From Candidatus Helarchaeota archaeon (GTDB taxonomy: Archaea > Asgardarchaeota > Lokiarchaeia > Helarchaeales > RDOG01): a DNA stretch of 32,000 nucleotides. A model generated the notes under the pieces. It did not search any database. It saw nothing but the letters and a program-made list of their open reading frames with translations, and was not told the DNA's origin. The position numbers were made by a program, and so were the translations under genes. Shown one piece after another: positions 4,314 to 20,292 of this stretch; within the stretch, counting starts at the first letter, position 1; each line of letters starts with the position of its first letter. The stretch is taken from NCBI GenBank assembly GCA_019058315.1, contig JAHPZH010000006.1:107052-139051 (forward strand), in the 5' to 3' direction.

Positions 4314-5204
4314 CTAATCTTGAGATTCAACAGATCTAGACCATTCATCAATTGCATTGGATAAAATTGAAACCAAATTTTCACGAAAAGTTGGATTTAT
4401 TGCTACCATAGAATAACAAGGAACACCTAATAATCGTTCAATTAATTTTGGTTTCATTGCCCTCGGCATATCTTGCTTATTAGCGATTCCAACCGTATGA
4501 AGTATTCTCTCTTGTTGTTTTTGTCTTATTATTTCTAAATATACCTTTTTTGTTTCCATCACATTTTCAACAGTACTATCTGTCACTAATAAGACAATGT
4601 TAGTTCCACGTAATAAAAAAGTCCATAAAGGAGTATATCTCTCCTGACCAGCAAAATCCCAAATTATTACTTCAAAACGGTCAGATAAACCAGTTAATCT
4701 TTTTACATCAACTGCAATTGTTGGATTATAATCTAATGGAACCTCAGTTCCTCTCATCAAATTAAGCATTGTTGTCTTTCCAACACCACCAAACCCTACA
4801 AGCGCAATTTTGATAATTCCCATTAATATTTTTTCTAGACTTGTATTAAAACCATCAAAAGCACTTGAATCCCTTCCATCCCAACCCAAAGCTTGTATAC
4901 CAAAATCTTCTACAAAAGAATCTCTTGTTCGTTTTAATCTCTCTCTCAATCCTAAGTCATCATCGCCTTCATCTGCACAAAAAACGAATAAATAATCCCT
5001 ATATCTTCCAGGTCCTGCAGTATAAACAAATTTTAAACGTCCAGTAACCACTGATTTAATTTCTCCTTCTGATAAAGACCCTGCAAATGAACTTACAGCA
5101 CTAAGAAAAACTGAGACAAGACTATCATCAACTTTAACGCTGCCATAGGTTTTATGGAATAAAATTGTTCCATCACTTCTGATAATGTAAACATGGTTTA
5201 TCAT
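4314..5204 (-). CDS. Small Ras/Arf-superfamily GTPase fused to an N-terminal longin/roadblock-like domain
   Basis: The C-terminal half has G1 LVGFGGVGKTT, G2 NPTIAVD, G3 WDFAGQERY and G4 NKQD. The N-terminal ~125 aa (MINHVYIIRSDGTILFHKTYG...LFVFCADEGDD) have the alternating beta/alpha pattern of longin/roadblock (MglB-like) domains. Confidence 0.75.
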   Translation of the reverse strand: MINHVYIIRSDGTILFHKTYGSVKVDDSLVSVFLSAVSSFAGSLSEGEIKSVVTGRLKFVYTAGPGRYRDYLFVFCADEGDDDLGLRERLKRTRDSFVEDFGIQALGWDGRDSSAFDGFNTSLEKILMGIIKIALVGFGGVGKTTMLNLMRGTEVPLDYNPTIAVDVKRLTGLSDRFEVIIWDFAGQERYTPLWTFLLRGTNIVLLVTDSTVENVMETKKVYLEIIRQKQQERILHTVGIANKQDMPRAMKPKLIERLLGVPCYSMVAINPTFRENLVSILSNAIDEWSRSVESQD

Positions 5205-10368: not shown

Positions 10369-10550
10369 AAATCAAACCATTTGTATTTTTTTTTAAAATT
10401 CTTTAAATAATCTAAGAAATAATATAAAAACTACCAGTTTAACCCTACAAAATATAATGATAATGAAGTGACTTAAAAGAGAAAGAATTAATAATGATGT
10501 TAATAATAAATTATTAATTTTTACTTAATTGTGTAGAGTTGCTATATAAT

Positions 10551-10913
10551 ATGTCGTATGATGATTTAGTTAACAATATTATGGCGCAAAATCCGTCAAT
10601 TACGGCTATTGCTATCGAAAGTAACGGGGCAATCATTTATCAAACATCTAATTGGGATCTTTCGGGAGATATTTCATCGGTAATTGGTCTATGGAGCTCA
10701 AGTCAAGGTGGTGGATCACTCAATATTCAAGGAATTAAATATATTTGTTTAGAAGTAATCCCTGAACGTCTAATTGCTACAAATGTTCAAGGACAAGGAC
10801 ATATCGTAGCTTTTAAAGGAAATAGTGGGAATCGAATAATAACTTACGTAAGTCCCGATGGCGATGCACGAGGTGCTCTTGCAGTCTTAAACTCAATGGC
10901 TGCTTATATTTAA
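10551..10913 (+). CDS. Profilin (Asgard-type)
   Basis: About 120 aa with the profilin template: ITAIAIESNGAIIYQTSNW, SLNIQGIKYICLEV, NVQGQGHIVAFKG, IITYVSP, GALAVLNSMAAYI. ATG at 10551; the ORF track extends to a TTG at 10539. Confidence 0.75.
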   Translation: MSYDDLVNNIMAQNPSITAIAIESNGAIIYQTSNWDLSGDISSVIGLWSSSQGGGSLNIQGIKYICLEVIPERLIATNVQGQGHIVAFKGNSGNRIITYVSPDGDARGALAVLNSMAAYI

Positions 10914-11068
10914 TTTCAATTTTGTTATATTTTTTTATTTTCAACAAATTATTTAATAAAAAAATTTATTCTTACAATTTTTAATAATTTAGAATTATTT
11001 AATTTGAAAATAATTATTTATATTTTAAGAACACAAGATAACATTAGTAAGTTTTTAGGTTGGAAATT

Positions 11069-12013
11069 ATGAGCACTGATAGTAAATTCGTGATTATGTT
11101 AGAAATTACTAGTGGAGTTAGTGAAAGACTTCTATTTAATATGGAAAGTCTGAAAGATGATAATATTGTAGCAATAATGGATGAGATCCATGATGTAATA
11201 TGGTTATGGATGGGAAAAAACACAGGATTGGTTCAAAGAAGGGGATCTATGCGTGCAGCAAGAAGTTTAAAGGCTTATGGTCATGAAATAAGCCCTTATA
11301 TTGTTGGTAGAAAATTAAAAGATGTGTTAGATGTAAGAGGAGATTCTATTGAATCTGATGCGGAACAAAAACAAAGATTTGAACAAGTTTTAAATCTTTT
11401 TAATACCGAACATAATTTAAAATTCGAAGGCGTTCTTGCTGAATATACAGGTATTGGTGCAGGAGCATCTAATATTAAATATGGACTTACAACTGAACAA
11501 AGAAGCGAATTAGTAAAAGCGGCTCTTGCTGCACCAACTGCAGGAGATGATACCCGAAAAATTGAACAAATTGTTGGAGATTTTCGTCCGCCACCTCCAC
11601 CAGAATCAAGTACTGCAAAGGTTATCCCTAAATATCAAGAAAATGTATCTTCTGTTCCAATAAAAACAGCCCCCAAACCAGTTTCACCAACCCCTGCGAC
11701 CCCAACTAAGACAGTAACAATCCAACAAAGGGCCCCTATAGATGAAAACGTTTTAGGTGAAATTAAAGGGTCAATTTTAATAAATGCGATTTTAAGTAAA
11801 TTTAATGAACTTTTTGTAGGAGTCTCAAAAAGTCCTGATGGTTCAAAAACCTATAGCATAGAGGGTCCTAATGGTGAGACTTGTAAATTTAACATAAAAG
11901 GGTCTAATTTAAGTTTTTTGCCAGGATCTTGGGAGAAAATTGCTCCTAATATAAAACAAGAGATTCAAAAACTGTTTTTAGATCGTGTACAATTACTAAT
12001 TAAAAATAATTAA
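11069..12013 (+). CDS. Gelsolin/cofilin-fold domain protein with a proline-rich linker and a C-terminal domain of unknown function (1-domain gelsolin plus X architecture)
   Basis: The N-terminal ~100 aa fit the gelsolin repeat pattern: FVIMLEI...LFNMESLKDDNIVAIMDEIHDVIWLWMGKNTGLVQRRGSMRAARSLKAYG...RFEQVLNLF. A low-complexity linker follows, with PPPPP at 11588-11602 and a Pro/Thr/Ser-rich stretch. The last ~90 aa are mainly beta in character and have no recognised motif. Confidence 0.6.
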   Translation: MSTDSKFVIMLEITSGVSERLLFNMESLKDDNIVAIMDEIHDVIWLWMGKNTGLVQRRGSMRAARSLKAYGHEISPYIVGRKLKDVLDVRGDSIESDAEQKQRFEQVLNLFNTEHNLKFEGVLAEYTGIGAGASNIKYGLTTEQRSELVKAALAAPTAGDDTRKIEQIVGDFRPPPPPESSTAKVIPKYQENVSSVPIKTAPKPVSPTPATPTKTVTIQQRAPIDENVLGEIKGSILINAILSKFNELFVGVSKSPDGSKTYSIEGPNGETCKFNIKGSNLSFLPGSWEKIAPNIKQEIQKLFLDRVQLLIKNN

Positions 12014-12014
12014 A

Positions 12015-13787
12015 TTATTTTTTATTTTGATTTTGATACATTTGAATTAATTCATTTGTGGTTGTAGCATCTTCTGGATTTTTATCATATCTTATTTGTA
12101 AAAACCTTGGAAATCGAATAGATAAGCCTGAATTTTCTCTAAATTCTCCAAATGCTGCTGAATATGTAGGTGAAAGAGTTATTTCATCTCCCTTAATCTC
12201 AATTACGATATTAGGAGAAAAAAGCACATCAGGTTTTATTTCACTTGGTAATTCTACCCGAGGATCTTTTTCCTGAATTTTGAACGGATCTAGGAGTTCC
12301 ATAAAAGTTTTTAAGACCTCTTCAGTAAAACCAGATGCAATTTTACAAGTTGTTTTAAATAAATCTGTATCTTTATCATAAATTGCTCCAAATAAGGCTC
12401 CATAGAGCCCAGCCCATTTCCCACGTCCCATATTCCCCCCAACGACAACTAAATCAATTGAATCTCCTAGATTTTCTTGATATGAATGTTTAAATTTTAT
12501 CCACAAAAAGCCTCTTGCGCCTGCTTTGTAAATCGAATCTTTTTGTATTGATTTTGCTATAACTCCCTCACAACCATCTTTAATTGATTTATCAAAAAAC
12601 TCATGAAATGGGCTTGGAGAATCTACTATCAAGCTTTTAGCAGTAGATATACCATTGTTTTTTATCAATTTTTCTAAATTCTTTCTTCTTTCCAAATATG
12701 ATTCGTTTAAAAAGCTTTTTCCATTCAAAAATAATAAATCAAAAACGAATAATTTGACTTGATATTGCTCTTTGGCTTTATCAACATCATATTTTCTACG
12801 TCGATGCATTAATTCTTGAAATGGTTTAAACTTATTATTTGCTATATCATAAGCTACACATTCGCCCTCAATTATTAATTGATTAACATCGATGTCTTGG
12901 ATATATTCTCGAACATCAGGAAATTGTTCAGTTAATTTTTCGAGGTTTCTAGAATATAATACAATTTTTTCACCATCTTTATGAGCTTGTATTCGTATTC
13001 CATCATATTTATATTCCAGAGCACATTTCCCCCCCAATTTCTCTAAAATTTCTTCAGGTGTTGCCAATCTCTGTGCTAACATCATCCTAATAGGAGTTCC
13101 AATTTGGATTTTAATATTTTTAATAGCTAAAATACCCTTTTCCGCCAATTCTTTTGCTATATACCCTAAATCACAACGAACATTGTAAGCATTTTCAATT
13201 ATTTCTTTGTTTGCTTTTTCATCTGTGAAAGCAATAGCTAATGCTTCAATCATAGTCATTTCGGCAATTCCAACCCTAAGTTTTCCTTCTATTGTTCTAA
13301 TTATCCATTTAGCTTCCTTAGGAGAAGCATTACTAAGTAATGAAGCAAGAGACTTCATTTTACGTTCTTGAGACCCTGCTCCAGAATAGGTTCTCATGTT
13401 TTCAAATGTTGAATAAACTTGAGATATTGTTAATGGTTTTGGTTTAATAAGTGTCATTTGTTTTTTTCCTTTTAATGTCCCAACATAGGATCCTAAGTCA
13501 ATTGCTTTTTTTTCAGATGATAATCCACTTATTTTTTTTATTTGCCTTTCAATTTTTTTTACAGGAACCCCAAAAGATGTCGATATAGTTTTTATTGCCA
13601 ATTTTTCGGCCATGCCTATCTCTGGTTTTCCAATCCAACTCGGTTCTCCTAATGTTAAATAAATAATTATATCAATTAGTTCAGTTGGAGTTATTTTTAT
13701 TAAATCAACTAAATGGTCTATCATTTCTAACCTTTTAGTCGTATTTTCTAATTTTTCATATGTAGACACTAAGTCAAGGTATTTCAT
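12015..13787 (-). CDS. lig: ATP-dependent DNA ligase (Lig1 type)
   Basis: Motif I is EYKYDGIRIQAH (KxDG), followed by CEGVIAKS and LWIKFK. The N-terminus MKYLDLVSTYEKLENTTKRLEM is typical of archaeal ligases, so I prefer the ATG at 13787 over the TTG at 13799. Confidence 0.92.
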   Translation of the reverse strand: MKYLDLVSTYEKLENTTKRLEMIDHLVDLIKITPTELIDIIIYLTLGEPSWIGKPEIGMAEKLAIKTISTSFGVPVKKIERQIKKISGLSSEKKAIDLGSYVGTLKGKKQMTLIKPKPLTISQVYSTFENMRTYSGAGSQERKMKSLASLLSNASPKEAKWIIRTIEGKLRVGIAEMTMIEALAIAFTDEKANKEIIENAYNVRCDLGYIAKELAEKGILAIKNIKIQIGTPIRMMLAQRLATPEEILEKLGGKCALEYKYDGIRIQAHKDGEKIVLYSRNLEKLTEQFPDVREYIQDIDVNQLIIEGECVAYDIANNKFKPFQELMHRRRKYDVDKAKEQYQVKLFVFDLLFLNGKSFLNESYLERRKNLEKLIKNNGISTAKSLIVDSPSPFHEFFDKSIKDGCEGVIAKSIQKDSIYKAGARGFLWIKFKHSYQENLGDSIDLVVVGGNMGRGKWAGLYGALFGAIYDKDTDLFKTTCKIASGFTEEVLKTFMELLDPFKIQEKDPRVELPSEIKPDVLFSPNIVIEIKGDEITLSPTYSAAFGEFRENSGLSIRFPRFLQIRYDKNPEDATTTNELIQMYQNQNKK

Positions 13788-13801
13788 AAAAACACGCAAA
13801 A

Positions 13802-15064
13802 TTATTTATCTTGAAAGAAAAGACTTTGAATTTCTTTTAATGCAATTTTTTCGATAATTCTAGCAGAATAATTAGTATTTTTTGCTACATTTATAAGGTC
13901 ATCAAATTCGGGTTTTATTTGAATAATTTCTCCATTATTGTTTTTTACTATTTTTATTTTTATTTTCCATTTTTTATTATCTATATCAATTTTGATCTCT
14001 TTAATTTCTCGATTAAGAATAAATCTTTTACAAGGATAAACACGAACTCCTAAAGTTCCTGTTTCATTCATCAATATTTTTATTAACTCTTCTTGATTTA
14101 TTGAATTCGTAATAACTTTTATAATATGTCCTGGGCGATTTTTTTTAGTAATCATAGGAATTATACTTACATCCTTAGCATTACCTTCATCAATTAATTT
14201 TTTAATTGTATGACCAAGAATTTCACCTGAAACATCATCTATATTAGTTTCTAATACAATAATTTCATCAGTATCTGAAAATATTTCTTTTTGATAACCA
14301 GTTATAACCCTCATTATATTTGGAATATTGGAAAAGGTTTTTGAGCCAGCTCCATAACCTATAGATTTTATCTTCATATTAGGAAAGCTTGAAATTGATT
14401 TTATTTTTAAACTTGCTATAATTGCAGCTCCAGTAGGTGTAGTCAATTCTTCATTAATATCCCCACCAGTGATTTCAATATTATTTGAAGAAAGAATTTC
14501 TAATGTAGCAGGTGCGGGAGCTGATATTATACCATGAGAAAATTTAATCTTTCCACTACCAACTGCAACAGGTAATACAAACCAAGTTACATTATTAAAT
14601 AAATTTAAGCTTTCCAATGCTGTCGCTGATCCAATAGAATCAATTAATGTATCAGCTGAACCTGTTTCATGCAAATGTACTTTCTCTATAGTAGTATTAT
14701 GTACTTTAGCTTCAGTTTTTATCAAAGTCTTAACTATTGATAATGCATATTGTTTGGCCATATCTGTTAATTTTAAATTGTTTAAACATTTTTCAGTAAT
14801 TTTAATTAATTCAATTCCAGTTCGATGATATTTTTTTTCTGAAAATTTTATTTGAATTCTTTTTGCATGAAATTGCTCTATTTTATTATTATTTAAAGAT
14901 AGAGAAATATCTGAAACTCCTTCTAAATAGTCTGGTATAATTGATATATTATTCTGGATGGATTTAATATTGACCCCAAGATCTATTAAAGCACTTAGAA
15001 ATTTATCTCCTGATATTCCCGTAGTTTGACAGTCGATAATAGCGATATTTGGATTAGTCATCAA
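13802..15064 (-). CDS. larC: LarC-family nickel insertion protein (nickel-pincer nucleotide cofactor biosynthesis)
   Basis: The N-terminal IAIIDCQTTGISGDKFLSALIDLG signature of the DUF111/LarC family. 420 aa, a single unfused-frame polypeptide. Confidence 0.8.
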   Translation of the reverse strand: MMTNPNIAIIDCQTTGISGDKFLSALIDLGVNIKSIQNNISIIPDYLEGVSDISLSLNNNKIEQFHAKRIQIKFSEKKYHRTGIELIKITEKCLNNLKLTDMAKQYALSIVKTLIKTEAKVHNTTIEKVHLHETGSADTLIDSIGSATALESLNLFNNVTWFVLPVAVGSGKIKFSHGIISAPAPATLEILSSNNIEITGGDINEELTTPTGAAIIASLKIKSISSFPNMKIKSIGYGAGSKTFSNIPNIMRVITGYQKEIFSDTDEIIVLETNIDDVSGEILGHTIKKLIDEGNAKDVSIIPMITKKNRPGHIIKVITNSINQEELIKILMNETGTLGVRVYPCKRFILNREIKEIKIDIDNKKWKIKIKIVKNNNGEIIQIKPEFDDLINVAKNTNYSARIIEKIALKEIQSLFFQDK

Positions 15065-15074
15065 TATGAATCAC

Positions 15075-15887
15075 TTATTTATCTTTTAATTTATTTCTAA
15101 ATGAAGCTACACGATTTGCAATTTTTGCTGCCATAACTCCTGCTCCAAATCCATTATCTATATTAACTACTGCAATTGGAGAACAAGAACTTAGCATTGA
15201 ATTTAATGCACTAAACCCTTTCTCACTAACACCATAACCTATAGAAGTAGGAACTCCTATTACTGGAACATCTATAAGGGAGGAAACAACACCTGCTAAT
15301 AAACCTTCAAAACCCGCACAAACCACAACAACATCTACTTCTGCATCAATTAATTTCCTTAAAGGTGGAAAAATTCTATGTAAACCAGCAATACCTACAT
15401 CATATGAAGTAAATGTTGAACATCCCATAGACTTACAAATAATTTTAATTTCTTCAGCAATGGGAATATCTGAAGTACCAGCGGTAATTATCCCAATTTT
15501 ACCTCCTTTATCTTCAATTTGATATCCCTTTTTCTTTACTACTATTAATTTCGCTAATTCATGTACTTCAATTTCTAAGTCTTTTGGTAAAATATTTTGG
15601 ATTTCAATAGTATGTTCATTTGAAATTTTTGTCATTATAGAGAGATTTTTAGTTTGGGCAATTTTTATTGCAATTTGAGCTGCTTGTTTTGGATTTTTGC
15701 TTGCACTATAAACTATTTCTGGTATTCCAGTTCTAAGTTCCCTTTCCATATCTATATTAACAAAATCTTCTATACTAATTATTCTATTTGCTTTTAATAA
15801 TCTTTCAGCCTCATCAATTGAGATTTTCCCATTTTTAAAATCTTCTAAAATTTCTCTCGAAGTCTTCATTGTTCTTATTTTCTCCAT
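15075..15887 (-). CDS. larB: LarB-family (PurE-like) pyridinium-3,5-biscarboxylic acid mononucleotide synthase
   Basis: PurE-like core KIGIITAGTSDIPIAEE...VVVVCAGFEGLLAGVV...PVIGVPTSIGYG. Located 10 nt upstream of larC. Confidence 0.8.
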   Translation of the reverse strand: MEKIRTMKTSREILEDFKNGKISIDEAERLLKANRIISIEDFVNIDMERELRTGIPEIVYSASKNPKQAAQIAIKIAQTKNLSIMTKISNEHTIEIQNILPKDLEIEVHELAKLIVVKKKGYQIEDKGGKIGIITAGTSDIPIAEEIKIICKSMGCSTFTSYDVGIAGLHRIFPPLRKLIDAEVDVVVVCAGFEGLLAGVVSSLIDVPVIGVPTSIGYGVSEKGFSALNSMLSSCSPIAVVNIDNGFGAGVMAAKIANRVASFRNKLKDK

Positions 15888-16026
15888 TTTTAAGTTTTAA
15901 TTGTTATAAAATCTCAAATAAATTTCTTATTTAATACTTTAGAAGTAAATTAAAATAATAAATTTCTAATTTTGTTTATATTAATTGAGCGTAGATTTTC
16001 GCATTATGTTATTAAATATTTAAATT

Positions 16027-16485
16027 CTAGTGATTATGTTTATGTTTAAAAACTCTTTTTTTCTCTTCTGATAATAATGGCATAAAAATCTTTTTAATGG
16101 ATTTTATTTCTGGTCGTTTTTCTAATTCTTCACTCAAAGTGTCTATTGATTGTCCTTGCCCTCGAACAGCCATAACCAACATACAGTTTTCTCCGTCTAA
16201 ATGGATATGTAAAGTTGCATCTATTACATCATAATATTGATGTTGAATTTCGGTTAATTCATCCATAACTCCAGGTCTTTCTTCATGATTTAATATACAA
16301 GTGATTGAACCAGCTTTTAAATTTCCTCCTTCTGCCAATTCTACACTTTTTTCCTCTATATAATCCCTCATAATCTTTCTAATTGTGTCTGATCTCGACA
16401 TGTCCTTTTTTTTAATTATTTCATCAAACTCATTTAACAAAGTTTCTGGTAAAGAAACCGTAAATCGTTGATATTTTTTTTTCAA
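16027..16485 (-). CDS. nikR: Nickel-responsive transcriptional regulator NikR (ribbon-helix-helix plus metal-binding domain)
   Basis: The N-terminal RHH is RFTVSLPETLLNEFDEII...RSDTIRKIMRDYI. The C-terminal domain has the H-x-H-x5-C nickel site pattern (LHIHLDGENC) and a His-rich tail HKHNH. Confidence 0.8.
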   Translation of the reverse strand: MKKKYQRFTVSLPETLLNEFDEIIKKKDMSRSDTIRKIMRDYIEEKSVELAEGGNLKAGSITCILNHEERPGVMDELTEIQHQYYDVIDATLHIHLDGENCMLVMAVRGQGQSIDTLSEELEKRPEIKSIKKIFMPLLSEEKKRVFKHKHNH

Positions 16486-16528: not shown

Positions 16529-17251
16529 TTATTTCAAGCATAATACCGCAACAGGTGTGGATGCTTTTCTCCATTGTGCCATCTTTGAATCTGGGTCATA
16601 AGACATGGATATTTCTTTTCTTCCATGATTTCCTACTATCATTATAAGAGAATTTGGTGCTGCTTGTTTATACATACTCAACATCCACTTATCTGTCCTA
16701 TGGATTAATCTTTTAATTAAGTTCTCAGGAGGACCACGTTTATAAATTGGATTTTGATATAAATTTTCGAAATCTAGGAAATGTATCCATTGAAAATCAA
16801 ATCTATTCAAATATTTGGAAGCAGATACCCACGTATTTGTATCCATCTTAGTGGGAATAACTTTTGATGTTCCTGCATAAGTTATAAGATCTTCTTGTCT
16901 ACCAATCATTAGAGTTGTTTTGGAATTTTGATTTAAATATGACATAAGATTAAAATCTTTATTTTGAAGATCTCCATGAAAAATTTGGTGTAAAACCTCA
17001 TTAGCAAGAGGTTGCTCAGTTTCTAATAATATTAAAGCTTTAGATTGACTTATGACAAATTCGGGTTTGTGAACCACAATCTCAAATAATCCAAAGTTAT
17101 CTAACATTATCAAAATAATACGTTCTATTGGGGGAGTCTTCATTTGAATGGGTTCAGGTAAATTATTTGGAATTGTGATGCCAAATAAGTGTAAAATAGT
17201 TGAAGTTAGTGCTGGCATTGGTGCATTAATTGATGGTAAATCATCACTCAA
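16529..17251 (-). CDS. Hypothetical protein, possibly a divergent alkaline-phosphatase-superfamily (type I phosphodiesterase-like) fold
   Basis: A 240-aa ORF. Weak resemblances only: ILIMLDNFG, IHFLDFENLY, MIVGNHG. Usual metal ligands appear partly substituted, so the family assignment is tentative. Confidence 0.35.
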   Translation of the reverse strand: MSDDLPSINAPMPALTSTILHLFGITIPNNLPEPIQMKTPPIERIILIMLDNFGLFEIVVHKPEFVISQSKALILLETEQPLANEVLHQIFHGDLQNKDFNLMSYLNQNSKTTLMIGRQEDLITYAGTSKVIPTKMDTNTWVSASKYLNRFDFQWIHFLDFENLYQNPIYKRGPPENLIKRLIHRTDKWMLSMYKQAAPNSLIMIVGNHGRKEISMSYDPDSKMAQWRKASTPVAVLCLK

Positions 17252-17414
17252 GATTAAATCAAACCCTTTTAATCTTTCTTTATTAACTATATTTTGAGAT
17301 TATTTGTTCCTTATTTATTTTTTTAAAAATATATTTTTTGTGTAATAAGAAAAAAAAGATATTTTAAAGTATTAAGCAAAATAATACAGAATAATCATAT
17401 TTTAATGAGTAAAA

Positions 17415-17540
17415 TGGAGCCTCAGCCGGGGAACGATCCCGGGACCTTTGCCTTTCTGGCAGATATTATTACCAGGGCAACGCTTTACCGTTGAAATTTT
17501 CAGATCGGCATGATTTTTCTACCAACTGAGCTACTGAGGC
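17415..17540 (-). tRNA. tRNA-Thr(GGU) with two introns (about 34 nt in the D-arm, 16 nt at 37/38); CCA encoded
   Basis: The reverse complement reads GCCTCAG-TA-GCTC-AGTTGGTA-GA[~34 nt]GC-G-TTGCC-CTGGTA[16 nt]A-GGCAA-AGGTC-CCGGG-ATCGTTC-CCCGG-CTGAGGC-T-CCA. The anticodon intron (17469-17454) sits in a BHB with central helix CTGG/CCAG and bulges TAA/AAA. Confidence 0.8.
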
Positions 17541-17550
17541 GTAAATTTAA

Positions 17551-17707
17551 TGGTGCGGGGGATGGGAGTTTCACCAAAATATATAATATTTCGGATTCGA
17601 ACCCATGAACTCCTACGAGACAGGATCTTAAGTCCTGCGCCGTTCGGCACGTTTGTATGACCCCATACAAGTTGTCTCTTTTGTTTTACCAGCTTGGCTA
17701 CCCCCGC
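17551..17707 (-). tRNA. tRNA-Leu(UAA) with two introns (about 40 nt in the D-loop, 28 nt in the T-loop); CCA encoded
   Basis: The reverse complement reads GCGGGGG-TA-GCC-AAGCTGGT..[~40 nt]..GGC-G-CAGGA-CTTAAGA-TCCTG-TCTCGTAGGAGTTC (long variable arm)-ATGGG-TTCGAA[28 nt, 17595-17568]T-CCCAT-CCCCCGC-A-CCA. Confidence 0.8.
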
Positions 17708-17817
17708 AAGGGTATTTTATAATATTTATTTTTAGTTTACAAACTATATTCTTTTCTAAATTGATTACTCAATATAATTTTTAATGAGATTTTCATATTT
17801 AAGATTTAGAATTAAAG

Positions 17818-18016
17818 TGCCGAAGGAGGGCTTTCCGTCCAAATTCTAGTAGCTATTTGGTTTCGGACCCTCGATCTCCGGAATACGCGTTTATGGAGCT
17901 AAATCCGATAACTTTATGAGTCCGGCGCGTATTCTTCTTGATCATAATAGATCAAGATTTCTAACCAGGTTTCTCTCCAAGAAAGCTGAGCTTTCCGGGA
18001 CCTAAGCTACTTCGGC
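17818..18016 (-). tRNA. tRNA with CAU anticodon (elongator Met or Ile2), apparently four introns; no encoded CCA; atypical T-loop
   Basis: The reverse complement reads GCCGAAG-TA-GCTTAG[~32 nt]CCTGGTTAGA[~31 nt]GC-G-CCGGA-CTCATA[~31 nt]-TCCGG-AGATC-GAGGG-TCCGAA[30 nt, 17861-17832]G-CCCTC-CTTCGGC-A. That is 199 nt for a tRNA of about 75 nt. The exon borders in the D-arm and anticodon loop are approximate. Confidence 0.55.
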
Positions 18017-18123
18017 TATGTTAATTCTTACAAGCTTTATTAAAATAACCTTAGTTTATAGAGTTTACTATTATTTATATTAAACCTTTTTCTTAAAGAA
18101 ATGAGTAAAACTAATTAAATGAA

Positions 18124-18199
18124 TGGAGCCTCTGGGGGGATTCGAACCCCCGACCATTGGCTTACAAGGCCAGCGCTCTACCAACTGAGCCACAGAGGC
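18124..18199 (-). tRNA. tRNA-Thr(UGU), intron-less, CCA encoded
   Basis: The reverse complement reads GCCTCTG-TG-GCTC-AGTTGGTA-GAGC-G-CTGGC-CTTGTAA-GCCAA-TGGTC-GGGGG-TTCGAAT-CCCCC-CAGAGGC-T-CCA. 76 nt. Confidence 0.95.
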
Positions 18200-18214
18200 A
18201 TTATTTAGATGATA

Positions 18215-18323
18215 TGGTGGGAAAGGTGAGATTTGAACTCACGATCCCGTGGTTTCTTTTTGATCCTTTACAATTTTCGGATATCCCAAGCCACGAATCA
18301 TAGCCAAGCTAGACCACTTTCCC
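18215..18323 (-). tRNA. tRNA-Pro(UGG) with a 31-nt intron at or near 37/38; CCA encoded
   Basis: The reverse complement reads GGGAAAG-TG-GTCT-AGCTTGGCTA-TGAT-T-CGTGG-CTTGGG[31 nt]A-CCACG-GGATC-GTGAG-TTCAAAT-CTCAC-CTTTCCC-A-CCA. Confidence 0.9.
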
Positions 18324-18328
18324 ATATT

Positions 18329-18552
18329 TGGTGGGGTTGAAGGGATTTTCACCGAAATTTCGATTATTTCGGATTTGAACCCTTGATAAGTCCTCTGGAT
18401 AAAACTCGTTCATCCAAACGAGTTACTCCTAGTGGTACGCTCCAAAATTACATCATCTGGAATCAGTATTTTTATTCTATTTTTCTGGAGCCCGTTGTCA
18501 TACCGTGTTTTCTTAAGCTCACAATATGTGAACACATCTAGACCACAACCCC
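18329..18552 (-). tRNA. tRNA-Trp(CCA) with four introns (D-loop ~30 nt, 37/38 61 nt, variable region ~28 nt, T-loop 28 nt); CCA encoded
   Basis: The reverse complement reads GGGGTTG-TG-GTCT-AG[~30 nt]CACGGTA-TGAC-A-ACGGG-CTCCAG[61 nt, 18484-18424]A-CTCGT-[variable region plus ~28 nt]-AAGGG-TTCAAA[28 nt, 18373-18346]T-CCCTT-CAACCCC-A-CCA. The 37/38 and T-loop introns sit in canonical BHBs (CTCC/GGAG and TTCA/TGAA central helices). The other two borders are approximate. Confidence 0.7.
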
Positions 18553-18585
18553 TTTTTATTCAGCTTTTTTAGGAGGTTTTTATGT

Positions 18586-18742
18586 GAGAAAATAATATTT
18601 TACCGTGTTCGGAACGAGAACGGATGGTTCCATTGGCCTATGGCCGACCACGAATGATCAGCTAACTGGATTTCTCGTTGGCTCTCGCACAACAGAAGTT
18701 CCAATAACGCACCAAATGTTTAATTCGGCATATTATTTCCTC
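18586..18742 (-). other. Bulge-helix-bulge processing structure enclosing the permuted 5S
   Basis: A 13-bp outer stem pairs 18742-18730 (GAGGAAATAATAT) with 18598-18586 (ATATTATTTTCTC). The 4-bp central helix is GCCG (18729-18726) / CGGT (18605-18602). The 3-nt bulges are AAT (18725-18723) and AAA (18601-18599). Confidence 0.55.
18600..18723 (-). rRNA. 5S rRNA gene, circularly permuted (3' half encoded upstream of the 5' half, joined by a UUCG loop)
   Basis: 18650->18603 reads TGGTCGGCCATAGGCCAATGGAACCATCCGTTCTCGTTCCGAACACGG, a 5S 5' half. 18723->18655 supplies the 3' half, ending GCTGATCA, which pairs with the TGGTCGGC start across the TTCG at 18654-18651. Rotated, the sequence is about 120 nt with all five 5S helices. 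See the finding for details. Confidence 0.6.
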
Positions 18743-19143
18743 TTTTTCTAAGGCGCCATAAATGTTTTCCGTTTTATTAATCATTTTCCATAATTTAAAT
18801 TTAAACTTCAATTTTTAAAAATTCTAAAGAATTAATTTAAAATTTTTCTCCATTACTTTTAACTTATTCTAATTTGAAATTTTATGTAAGCTATTAAACC
18901 AATAATTTATTATTTTCATCATATAACTTAATGCTTGACGATTTTAAATATTTGGAATAAAATCCAACTGTGTATTATTAACTTAAAATTATTAGTTTCT
19001 TAAAATAAAATAGAAAAATATTCATAAATTGATTTTGTATTCAAAAAATATATCTAAAATTTTTCTAAATTTGTTAAAATTAATAAAATTAGGTGAATTT
19101 TACATCCCTATATAATTCAATCAAATAATAATTGTGATTAAAG

Positions 19144-20292
19144 ATGGCTAATGGCACTCCCTCAATTCCTGGATTAACCCCACAAACAGATTATTTTACT
19201 ATGATTCTTCAAGTTGTTTTTTATGTTTTCTTCTTTATCTTTATGTTTTATGGTCAACGTATCCAAATGTGGACTTGGTTAAAAACTATAGAAAATGCAG
19301 TTGCAAAGTTGCAATATATGGCTCATGAGGGTAGAGAAATAACTATAAATATGATTAAGAATATTGCGAAACCGGAGACCGATCCTAGAAGTCTTGTGGG
19401 ACAATTTCTGGAATTCTTCATTGTCCAACCTGTAGAAAAAGATCCCGCAGGAGTCATAAGAAGATTAGAACATGTTCTTGATGTTCGTGAATCTAGATTT
19501 AAAGAGCATGTTAAAATCTTAGCACCTAATGTCAATAAGGATGAAGCTGCAAATATTGAAAATACATTAGAAGCTGCATTATCTGTCAATTTAATTTATC
19601 GAATTGTAAAACATTTTTACTTATTGGGTAAAAAGACCAAATCAATGATGGTTATTATGCAGATTCAAATGCAATTAAGTCTTATATTGAGAATCGCAAA
19701 AGCAATAATGGAGGCTTTAAAAGCTTTTTCACAAGGGAAACCAATTGGAGATGGTTTGGGACCTTTAGTTATTGCAAATCTTTATCATCGATATAAAAAT
19801 TCTCAAAATGAACCAAAGACAATACTTGATTACACAGAAGATATCACAGTCCATGAATTAGAAATTGAAGATAGACATGCATTTTTAGTTCGAGCCACAG
19901 GTCCTGGAGCTAGAGTAGGAAAACCAGGTAAAGCTGTTCAAAAGCTAATGGATGAATATCAAGATAAAATCAAACGTTTATTCATGATAGATGCTGGTTT
20001 AAAACTTGAAGGTGAAAAAACTGGGGATGTGATTGAAGGCGTTGGTGCAGTTATAGGAGGACCCGGTGTTGAAAAATATAAGATTGAAGAAAGTGGTGTA
20101 AAATATAATCTACCAATGGATGGTTATGTAGTAAAAGAATCCGAAATTGATGCATACGGTCCAATGAAACAAGATATTTCAAAATCTGTAAATAAAGTAA
20201 TTGAAATGTTAAAAAATGGAATTCAAGAGCGAACAGAAAAAGGTGACACTATTATCATCTGTGGTGTAGGAAATACTATCGGAATCGGATAA
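19144..20292 (+). CDS. Conserved archaeal membrane-anchored protein of unknown function (possibly DUF1512 family)
   Basis: 382 aa with an N-terminal TM helix (MILQVVFYVFFFIFMFYGQRIQ). A soluble domain follows with Gly-rich blocks GDGLGPLVIANLY, VRATGPGARVGKPGKA and EGVGAVIGGPGVEKY. The family name comes from memory of the family length and N-terminal pattern and has not been verified. Confidence 0.45.
   Translation: MANGTPSIPGLTPQTDYFTMILQVVFYVFFFIFMFYGQRIQMWTWLKTIENAVAKLQYMAHEGREITINMIKNIAKPETDPRSLVGQFLEFFIVQPVEKDPAGVIRRLEHVLDVRESRFKEHVKILAPNVNKDEAANIENTLEAALSVNLIYRIVKHFYLLGKKTKSMMVIMQIQMQLSLILRIAKAIMEALKAFSQGKPIGDGLGPLVIANLYHRYKNSQNEPKTILDYTEDITVHELEIEDRHAFLVRATGPGARVGKPGKAVQKLMDEYQDKIKRLFMIDAGLKLEGEKTGDVIEGVGAVIGGPGVEKYKIEESGVKYNLPMDGYVVKESEIDAYGPMKQDISKSVNKVIEMLKNGIQERTEKGDTIIICGVGNTIGIG

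Follow-up and report, generated by a model that had tools for sequence, protein, structure and literature searches.

A stretch of 32,000 nucleotides from contig JAHPZH010000006.1 of a Candidatus Helarchaeota archaeon, referred to here as the window, carries a profilin gene and, downstream on the same strand, a gene for a protein with one gelsolin-type domain that we assign to the Asgard GelX (1DGelX) class. We regard the two as a co-inherited pair of actin regulators acting on the same actin pool, and we take the proline-rich region of GelX, which includes a run of five prolines, to serve mainly as a spacer that separates the gelsolin module from a C-terminal domain, called domain X. We put the probability of this reading at about 0.7. 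The evidence comes from the conservation of the gene pair, from the predicted folds of GelX and from the distribution of its proline-rich motif among relatives.

Identification of the profilin

A first-pass annotation of the window had described a profilin of about 120 aa located 155 nt upstream of a gelsolin-fold gene, and this description holds: the protein has 120 aa (10551-10913) and the 155-nt spacer occupies 10914-11068, with both genes on the same strand. The open reading frames (ORFs) called mechanically start at TTG 10539 for profilin and TTG 11060 for GelX. The true starts are likely ATG 10551 and ATG 11069, because homologues begin MSYD... and MS.D.KF..., and from these starts the window proteins begin MSYDD... 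and MSTDSKF.... Relatives of both proteins were found in metagenome-assembled genomes (MAGs) labelled Helarchaeota and in a few that bear the name Hodarchaeota, Promethearchaeota or Lokiarchaeota; in every named public record of these relatives both genes are annotated as 'hypothetical protein'. The window is AT-rich, with a GC content of 0.22-0.32.

Both families had been expected to be recognisable by hidden Markov models (HMMs), and this was borne out in part. The Pfam profilin model PF00235 aligned end to end with the window protein (residues 1-119, model positions 1-121 of 127), but with 22.7 bits (E=1.2e-4) the match narrowly missed the gathering cutoff of 25 bits, and the gelsolin repeat model PF00626 was not matched by the neighbouring protein. 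Searches against sequences of solved structures (phmmer) gave stronger results. The best Protein Data Bank (PDB) match was Odin profilin 5zza_P (2.2e-17), and matches to Loki 5yed_A (1.7e-13) and 5zzb_A (8.5e-13), Heimdall 7pbh_A (1.9e-10) and LC3 6yrr_A (4e-4) were also obtained. A family profile of 22 profilin members strengthened the PDB match to E=3.3e-24. The window profilin is colinear over its full length with the Asgard profilins of solved structure (Odin 5ZZA, Loki 5YED/5YEE/5ZZB, Heimdall 7PBH, LC3 6YRR) and shares with them the conserved blocks NW, IQGxKY and TNVQGQGHIV. Like Odin profilin it is short and has no N-terminal extension; it differs from Odin profilin at position 3, where Odin has L and the window protein has Y. 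At the level of sequence homology the profilin assignment can be considered settled, and binding of actin by this protein would be expected from it.

Conservation of the gene pair

The occurrence of the pair was surveyed in three genome loci, nine metagenome loci and five contig look-ups; the resulting count of 17 includes the window and two sets of near-duplicates (L002/L007 and L011/L012). In each of the 17 Helarchaeota-type loci whose flanks were long enough, profilin adjoined GelX, and adjacent locus tags agreed with this result. The idea of a two-gene unit is supported by this count. Outside the Helarchaeota-type loci, no profilin was found within 3 kb of GelX in Lokiarchaeum ossiferum (L. 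ossiferum), in MK-D1, in two other Loki-type genomes or in one Hodarchaeota MAG.

Two arrangements of the pair were observed. Five loci (window, L004, L005, L023, L024) carry it in tandem with spacers of 141-557 nt, and the gene beyond profilin is of the B12/radical-SAM type. The pair is divergent in the other 12, with spacers of 88-514 nt and with PmbA/TldD beyond profilin where that gene is visible (L001-L003, L006). Over the loci as a whole, the upstream neighbour of the pair is radical-SAM/L2 or PmbA/TldD. Since tandem and divergent loci differ in the outer gene, the comparison of gene orders indicates that the pair survived an inversion of profilin and a change of its outer neighbour. It is retained down to about 46% GelX identity.

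The block ATTTTGTTATATTTTT that follows the profilin stop codon is kept in the window, L004 and L005, while the rest of the spacer varies in length. The window and L004 hardly differ in the last 95 nt or so before the GelX start, a segment that includes a TATA-like element. The two genes probably do not form an operon, because the genes lie on the same strand in only 5 of the 17 loci, the tandem spacer is variable, a T-rich block follows profilin and a conserved block precedes GelX; profilin and GelX would accordingly be made from separate transcripts. A scan for sigma-70 promoters and hairpin terminators, signals that are irrelevant to archaea, gave background levels (11 sigma-70 sites against 9.9 expected) and was set aside.

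In L. ossiferum the genes for profilin B35_Pro2 (GNAMCCOK_02587) and the two-domain gelsolin B35_2DGel2 (GNAMCCOK_02589) have tags two apart (bioRxiv 10.1101/2025.11.30.690169, Supplementary Table 3). Judged from these tags, a linkage of profilin with a different type of gelsolin protein may recur outside Helarchaeota. No description of the profilin-GelX pair, of the conserved insert of GelX or of a folded domain X was found in the Asgard gelsolin and profilin literature, which is weak evidence since few subscription papers were covered.

The gelsolin domain and the class of GelX

Sequence models were of little help in recognising the N-terminal domain of GelX. Neither the whole protein (E<=1) nor its pieces, including residues 1-114 (E<=10), matched Pfam or NCBIfam, the PF00626 result being the same for the whole protein and for the isolated domain. 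A weak match to villin (E=0.26) was the only single-sequence match of GelX to the gelsolin family. The assignment came from structure prediction. In an AlphaFold2 (AF2) model built from a 43-sequence alignment, residues 1-112 had predicted local distance difference test (pLDDT) values of 70-88 and the C-terminal domain was also confident; the middle of the protein remained below 50 except for a helix at 142-154. A Foldseek search with residues 1-112 returned Thor ProGel 7c2f_B with a template modelling (TM) score of 0.76 (target-normalised), a root-mean-square deviation of 3.8 A and a probability of 1.0. All 15 matches at E<=0.001 were gelsolin-family structures, and the further matches included the 2DGel proteins of Heimdall, Thor and Loki as well as villin, adseverin and gelsolin G2/G3. 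The N-terminal domain of GelX is therefore predicted to have a gelsolin/cofilin fold.

These models agree with the main features that the first-pass annotation had given for the protein, namely a gelsolin/cofilin-fold domain, a C-terminal domain of about 90 aa (residues 222-314) and, between them, the tract FRPPPPPESS, whose five prolines (residues 174-178) lie at 11588-11602. Its helical segment was recovered in part, as the helix at 142-154; the remainder of the 57-residue insert in which this helix lies was mostly left unmodelled by AF2. Structure prediction thus supplied the gelsolin fold of GelX, and the identity of the profilin came through its solved homologues.

The most conserved stretch of the gelsolin domain is the long helix 54-70, where R57, R58, G59, M61 and R62 are invariant. 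Conservation is also high in the LKDV region, with L83 invariant and R81 and D85 conserved in at least 90% of sequences; LKDV has been named as a conserved WH2 motif of Promethearchaeota (bioRxiv 10.1101/2025.11.30.690169).

A profile of the Helarchaeota-type GelX (A1) retrieved 123 representative clusters across Asgard lineages, many of 250-320 aa. It reached distant GelX proteins at E~1e-38 with both the gelsolin and the X stretches matched, and it gave nothing at E<=1 against PDB sequences. A broader profile made from 39 distant GelX members (A4) matched ProGel with E=6.7e-5. When separate HMMs for the gelsolin and X domains were built from the clade, both domains were detected in 167 proteins. 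The MK-D1 protein P0228 (DSAG12_02234) was matched by the gelsolin HMM at 1.7e-26 and by the X HMM at 1.9e-13, and L. ossiferum P0246 and Hodarchaeota P0047 were also matched by both.

These profile matches place the window protein in the Asgard GelX/1DGelX class. Thor 1DGelX and Lokiarchaeum 'GelX' (Akil et al. 2020, PMC7444086; bioRxiv 10.1101/2025.11.30.690169) have the same architecture, in which a single gelsolin domain is joined by a long linker to domain X at the C-terminus, and GelX-type proteins, whether of the window or of the Thor and Loki type, are confined to Asgard archaea. Thor 1DGelX (KXH72031.1) binds rabbit actin with a Kd of 7.7 uM, nucleates at 0.1 uM, and severs and bundles filaments independently of calcium (PMC7444086). 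In L. ossiferum, co-immunoprecipitation with Lokiactin recovered a GelX protein of that organism (bioRxiv 10.1101/2025.11.30.690169). The window protein differs from the Loki and Hodarchaeota members by an additional conserved insert of about 57 residues (134-190), and from Thor 1DGelX and Loki GelX by its PPPPP run and its conserved profilin neighbour.

A similar overall layout is found in Abp1/drebrin-like proteins, which consist of an ADF-H domain, a helical or charged region, a Pro-rich region and a small C-terminal domain. The likeness is one of analogy and does not imply homology; the C-terminal SH3 domain of those proteins is unlike domain X, which has no Foldseek or Pfam match.

Domain X is a compact domain in the model

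Domain X modelled alone (residues 222-314) had a pLDDT of 91.6 and a predicted TM score (pTM) of 0.81, and the model showed a compact arrangement of a helix, a four-strand sheet and a second helix. Earlier descriptions of GelX differ from this compact fold: domain X was described as a coiled coil on the basis of I-TASSER (PMC7444086) and was labelled disordered (bioRxiv 10.1101/2025.11.30.690169). Foldseek returned no match at E<0.1 in the PDB or at E<0.01 in BFVD; the best PDB match was CENP-N (E=0.15), and ARPC2 was found only at E>0.6 with a probability of at most 0.25. The domain X profile matched no PDB sequence. A relationship between domain X and profilin was considered and rejected (hhalign probability 0.5%).

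Homologous X domains are present in the MK-D1, L. ossiferum and Hodarchaeota proteins. Proteins that appeared to consist of domain X alone were mostly gene fragments on inspection. Two proteins, P0150 and P0154, were genuine X-first proteins, in which an N-terminal domain X is followed first by a linker rich in Pro and Ala and then by a conserved domain of about 90 aa at the C-terminus (IPSTSY...QKIIVIPLFSPYA) that is similar to nothing in Pfam or the PDB and not to profilin. Because it also occurs at the N-terminus of these two-domain proteins, domain X looks like a mobile module.

The conserved insert, the proline-rich linker and the PPPPP run

The insert has the consensus YGLxxxQRxxLVxAAxxxxxxGDDxRxIExIxGxF-R-P-x-x-P-x-E-S-S-T-A, with 17 invariant columns in 59; GDDxRKIExIVG and QRxxLVxAA are its near-invariant elements. 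It was found only in the Helarchaeota-type clade, the same clade in which profilin adjoins GelX, and gave chance-level matches only against the PDB and Pfam. Since the insert is strongly conserved and has no predicted fold, we consider it a candidate for a peptide that acquires its fold on binding a partner, which could be actin, profilin, domain X or another molecule. The possibility that 'LVKAAL...RKIE' within the insert is WH2-like was dropped, as the spacing did not fit and LKDV at 83-86 is the better WH2-like candidate.

The five prolines (codons ccg cca cct cca cca) lie in the terminal part of this insert and outside the variable spacer. The linker as a whole (172-221) contains 24% Pro, compared with 0.9% in the gelsolin domain and 3.67% in the ORFs of the window, and beyond the PPPPP run it is of the PxP/PT type with Pro runs of no more than one. 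A run of at least five prolines was obtained in 1.5% of shuffles of the window linker (p=0.015), so PPPPP is mildly unexpected given the composition of the linker and very unexpected against the proteome background.

It had been anticipated that the Pro tract would be conserved across orthologues, which was not the case. Among 43 aligned orthologues the PPPPP run was present only in the closest relatives (>=72% identity). Orthologues that do not have it mostly carry [FY]RPxxPxxSS with one to four prolines, and the motifs observed were RPSPPPESS, RPAPPPESS, RPxVPxESS, QGDxPSxSS, YRPPPEKSS and RDAxPI. Only the fourth proline of the run (P177) was conserved in at least 90% of sequences. The linkers of the 167 proteins with GelX architecture had a median length of 82 aa and a median Pro content of 15.6%, against 2.6% in the folded domains. 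Their longest Pro run was one to three in 157 proteins and five in seven, all of the window sub-lineage. The linkers of Loki, MK-D1 and Hodarchaeota GelX are Pro-rich though these genes have no profilin neighbour. A profile of distant GelX aligned through its linker with the Pro/Ala-rich linker of the E2 succinyltransferase 9njt_A (E=0.0019). The linkers of 2-oxoacid dehydrogenase E2 have a similar Pro/Ala-rich composition; the proteins are unrelated and serve only as a model for the behaviour of an XP-rich spacer. Because linkers are Pro-rich nearly throughout and a run of five occurs in only 7 of 167, these alignments indicate that the Pro-rich spacer is a trait of the GelX class and that PPPPP is a recent elaboration, in one sub-lineage, of an older RPxxP motif.

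Could the adjacent profilin dock on the proline run?

An alternative to a spacer role is that the PPPPP run, or the wider RPxxP and Pro-rich region (peptide GDFRPPPPPESSTAK), is a docking site for the adjacent profilin, through which GelX would recruit profilin-actin to a filament end or nucleus as a primitive counterpart of FH1 or Ena/VASP. We regard this as plausible but unlikely, and the evidence on either side of it is as follows.

The first-pass annotation had stated that poly-proline binding varies among Asgard profilins, in agreement with the published data. No binding of VASP poly-proline was seen with the profilins of Loki, Odin and Heimdall LC2, and Heimdall LC3 and a Thor profilin bound poly-proline weakly, at 0.25-0.5 mM (PMC8410842). 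The closest solved homologues of the window profilin, those of Odin and Loki, are thus reported non-binders, which argues against docking. In heimProfilin (LC3) the poly-proline contacts include Y52, W53 (equated with human W32) and F147 (PMC8410842).

Candidate contact residues were sought with reference to the human aromatic platform (W3, Y6, W31, H133 and Y139 on the N- and C-terminal helices). An alignment of Asgard profilins with human profilin-1 by MAFFT was visibly wrong and was discarded in favour of hhalign, in which Asgard profilins were compared with four eukaryotic profilins; this alignment covers the N-terminal half only and has a probability of 13.8%. In it, Y3 of the window profilin aligns with human W3 and L6 with Y6. 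Y30 aligns with heimProfilin W53, while hhalign puts human W31 opposite I29, so that the mapping is ambiguous by one residue. Y119 belongs to a C-terminal 'MAAYI' whose likeness to the eukaryotic 'LADYL' was judged by eye, without an alignment. All five tandem loci encode profilins with Y or F at position 3, Y at 30 and Y at 119, whereas the profilins of the divergent clades have zero to two aromatics at these positions and the solved Asgard profilins do not combine the three.

Docking gains support from this pattern, since the only sub-lineage with a PPPPP or PSPPP motif in GelX has all three profilin aromatics: PPPPP is present in three tandem loci and PSPPP in L024. The match has exceptions, as L023 combines a three-aromatic profilin with QAAPPEE in GelX, and in L006 a profilin with two of the aromatics is paired with a GelX that lacks a Pro run. 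We consider it suggestive at the level of sequence; it counts as one evolutionary event, because the whole pattern traces to one clade. The N-terminus of the window profilin (MSYDDLVNNI) also resembles that of heimProfilin truncated of its N-terminal extension (MSYSDDLNSL), the form that binds poly-proline. Docking is further favoured by the position of PPPPP inside a positionally conserved motif instead of a variable spacer, by the rarity of five-Pro runs in shuffles and by the nucleation that Thor 1DGelX shows at low dose. It is weakened by the absence of the tract from most orthologues that retain the profilin neighbour, and by the presence of one five-Pro tract only. Known profilin ligands tend to contain at least six prolines in a tract or more than one tract, and the affinity of short single tracts lies in the mM range.

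The comparison with known eukaryotic profilin-recruiting proteins is similarly divided. Formin FH1 and Ena/VASP (PMC9433394) combine, as GelX does, a Pro tract with actin-binding elements in one polypeptide, and the GelX class is reported to nucleate; GelX has a single five-Pro tract in place of multiple longer ones, lacks the FH2, EVH1 and EVH2 domains, and its tract is not conserved among orthologues. Actin, profilins and gelsolins are all present in Asgard archaea, yet a machinery that exploits profilin-actin by way of poly-proline contacts is not known there, and profilin-recruiting nucleation machinery has been described as 'yet to be discovered in Asgard archaea' (PMC9433394), which counts in favour of docking. 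A bolder form of the docking proposal would be that the GelX of this Helarchaeota sub-lineage is the missing Asgard profilin-actin capture factor, in which RPPPPPE docks on a co-evolved platform of Y3, Y30 and Y119 while the gelsolin domain and the insert hold actin subunits; we find this quite improbable.

The natural profilin-GelX pair offers a cheap and concrete test case for docking, with sister clades that have the same neighbourhood and no platform or Pro run as built-in controls. If docking were true, archaea would have evolved poly-proline-mediated delivery of profilin-actin to a protein that nucleates and severs, either before formin and VASP or independently of them. The conserved gene pair, the lineage-specific peptide in GelX and a confidently folded domain X that has no structural relatives stand independently of docking.

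A probable pair of regulators acting on a shared actin pool

We favour the reading that profilin and GelX are co-inherited regulators of the same actin pool. The long helix and LKDV of the gelsolin domain would engage actin, and this domain would be followed by the insert of about 57 residues ending in [FY]RPxxPxxSS, by the extended Pro-rich spacer and by globular domain X. By analogy with Thor 1DGelX, GelX would probably sever filaments and, depending on its dose, nucleate or bundle them without calcium control, and profilin would buffer actin monomers. Most likely each gene has its own transcript, while both are inherited and regulated together. Their products would be coupled mainly through the shared substrate rather than by docking; PPPPP may add weak docking of profilin, which is unneeded to explain the locus. 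We infer a spacer role for the Pro-rich region because such linkers occur family-wide, long runs are rare, the Loki, MK-D1 and Hodarchaeota proteins have no profilin neighbour and the composition is E2-like.

Several points weigh against this reading. Class membership is judged from the architecture and from the MK-D1 and L. ossiferum relatives, and actin activity is ascribed to the Helarchaeota-type proteins by analogy. The [FY]RPxxP motif around PPPPP keeps its position among orthologues, as the remaining linker does not, and this would suit a specific partner better than a pure spacer. The occurrence of the insert and the profilin adjacency in the same clade hints at a link more direct than a shared substrate, and the profilins of the sub-lineage carry three aromatics at candidate poly-proline-contact positions.

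It could also be argued that the adjacency has no functional meaning and reflects descent within one order-level clade, the Pro tract being compositional drift in a low-complexity linker. All 17 loci do belong to one clade, the Loki and Hodarchaeota GelX genes have no profilin beside them, and the proline counts of the motif form a continuous range from one to five. Such neutrality is nevertheless improbable: the pair has outlasted the profilin inversion and the replacement of the outer gene, both products would, by analogy, act on actin, and the L. ossiferum Pro2 and 2DGel2 tags suggest a recurring linkage.

Features of the locus and neighbouring genes

Coordinates of the profilin-GelX locus in the window
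Feature	Position	Strand	Remarks
Profilin gene	10551..10913	+	120 codons plus stop; Asgard profilin of the short Odin/Loki type; homologues begin MSY/MSF
T-rich block directly 3' of the profilin stop	10914..10943	+	T7 at 10930-10936; putative archaeal oligo-T termination signal
Conserved region 5' of GelX	10974..11068	+	TATA-like TTTATATTTT at 11017-11026, AGGTTGG at 11057-11063; putative own promoter and 5' untranslated region
GelX (1DGelX-class) gene	11069..12013	+	314 aa plus stop; 44 full-length homologues
Gelsolin-homology domain, residues 1-112	11069..11404	+	AF2 model and Foldseek
LKDV, residues 83-86, Asgard WH2-like motif	11315..11326	+	Conservation and bioRxiv 10.1101/2025.11.30.690169
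Lineage-specific conserved insert, residues 134-190	11468..11638	+	Alignment; candidate binding peptide
Pro-rich inter-domain linker, residues 172-221	11582..11731	+	24% Pro
PPPPP run, residues 174-178	11588..11602	+	Within the conserved [FY]RPxxP motif
Domain X, residues 222-314	11732..12010	+	AF2; compact alpha-beta4-alpha
ATP-dependent DNA ligase gene	12015..13799	-	Convergent with GelX, 1 nt from the GelX stop

The DNA ligase gene adjoins GelX far more widely than profilin does, being found in the window, L001, L004-L006, L016-L019, L021 and L024. It is convergent with GelX in Helarchaeota and co-directional after GelX, with gaps of 57-119 nt, in L. ossiferum, MK-D1 and L018; it precedes GelX in the Hodarchaeota MAG, lies 1.6 kb away in L021 and is absent from L020 and L022, which are probably paralogues. 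That GelX works with this ligase, for instance in an actin-linked chromosome or DNA process, instead of as a general cytoskeletal regulator is highly improbable, since against the recurrent proximity of the two genes in Helarchaeota, Loki-type and Hodarchaeota genomes stand an orientation that varies between lineages, the loci without a ligase, the lack of any known mechanism joining the two proteins and a class biochemistry that concerns actin only. As far as is known, the ligase is a conserved neighbour of GelX and not part of an actin module.

A gene five genes from profilin (4314-5204, minus strand) encodes a 296-aa protein. Its residues 131-261 form a small GTPase domain of the Arf/Roc/Ras type, and the N-terminal extension before this domain, about 130 aa long, has no Pfam match. 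The protein is of the eukaryotic-signature kind typical of Asgard archaea, and an Arf GTPase was co-immunoprecipitated with Lokiactin (bioRxiv 10.1101/2025.11.30.690169).

Downstream of the ligase (13802-16485, minus strand) lie genes for a LarC-type nickel-insertion protein (PF01969), an AIRC/LarB-type protein (PF00731) and a NikR-like regulator. The LarC/LarB/NikR-type genes are also kept in L004-L006, and the group resembles a cluster for the nickel-pincer cofactor of lactate racemase. At the other end of the window, the first 4300 nt have the lowest GC content (0.22). They encode a protein of 745 aa whose secretion ATPase domain is of the T2SSE/FlaI type, and they contain an ORF of 522 aa that has no Pfam match. 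Two Rfam tRNA matches on the minus strand, at 18127-18199 and 18218-18323, fall within a stretch that is free of ORFs (17251-19144). The former was identified by ARAGORN as tRNA-Thr(TGT); the latter is 106 nt long and was not called by ARAGORN, as would be the case for an intron-containing archaeal tRNA.

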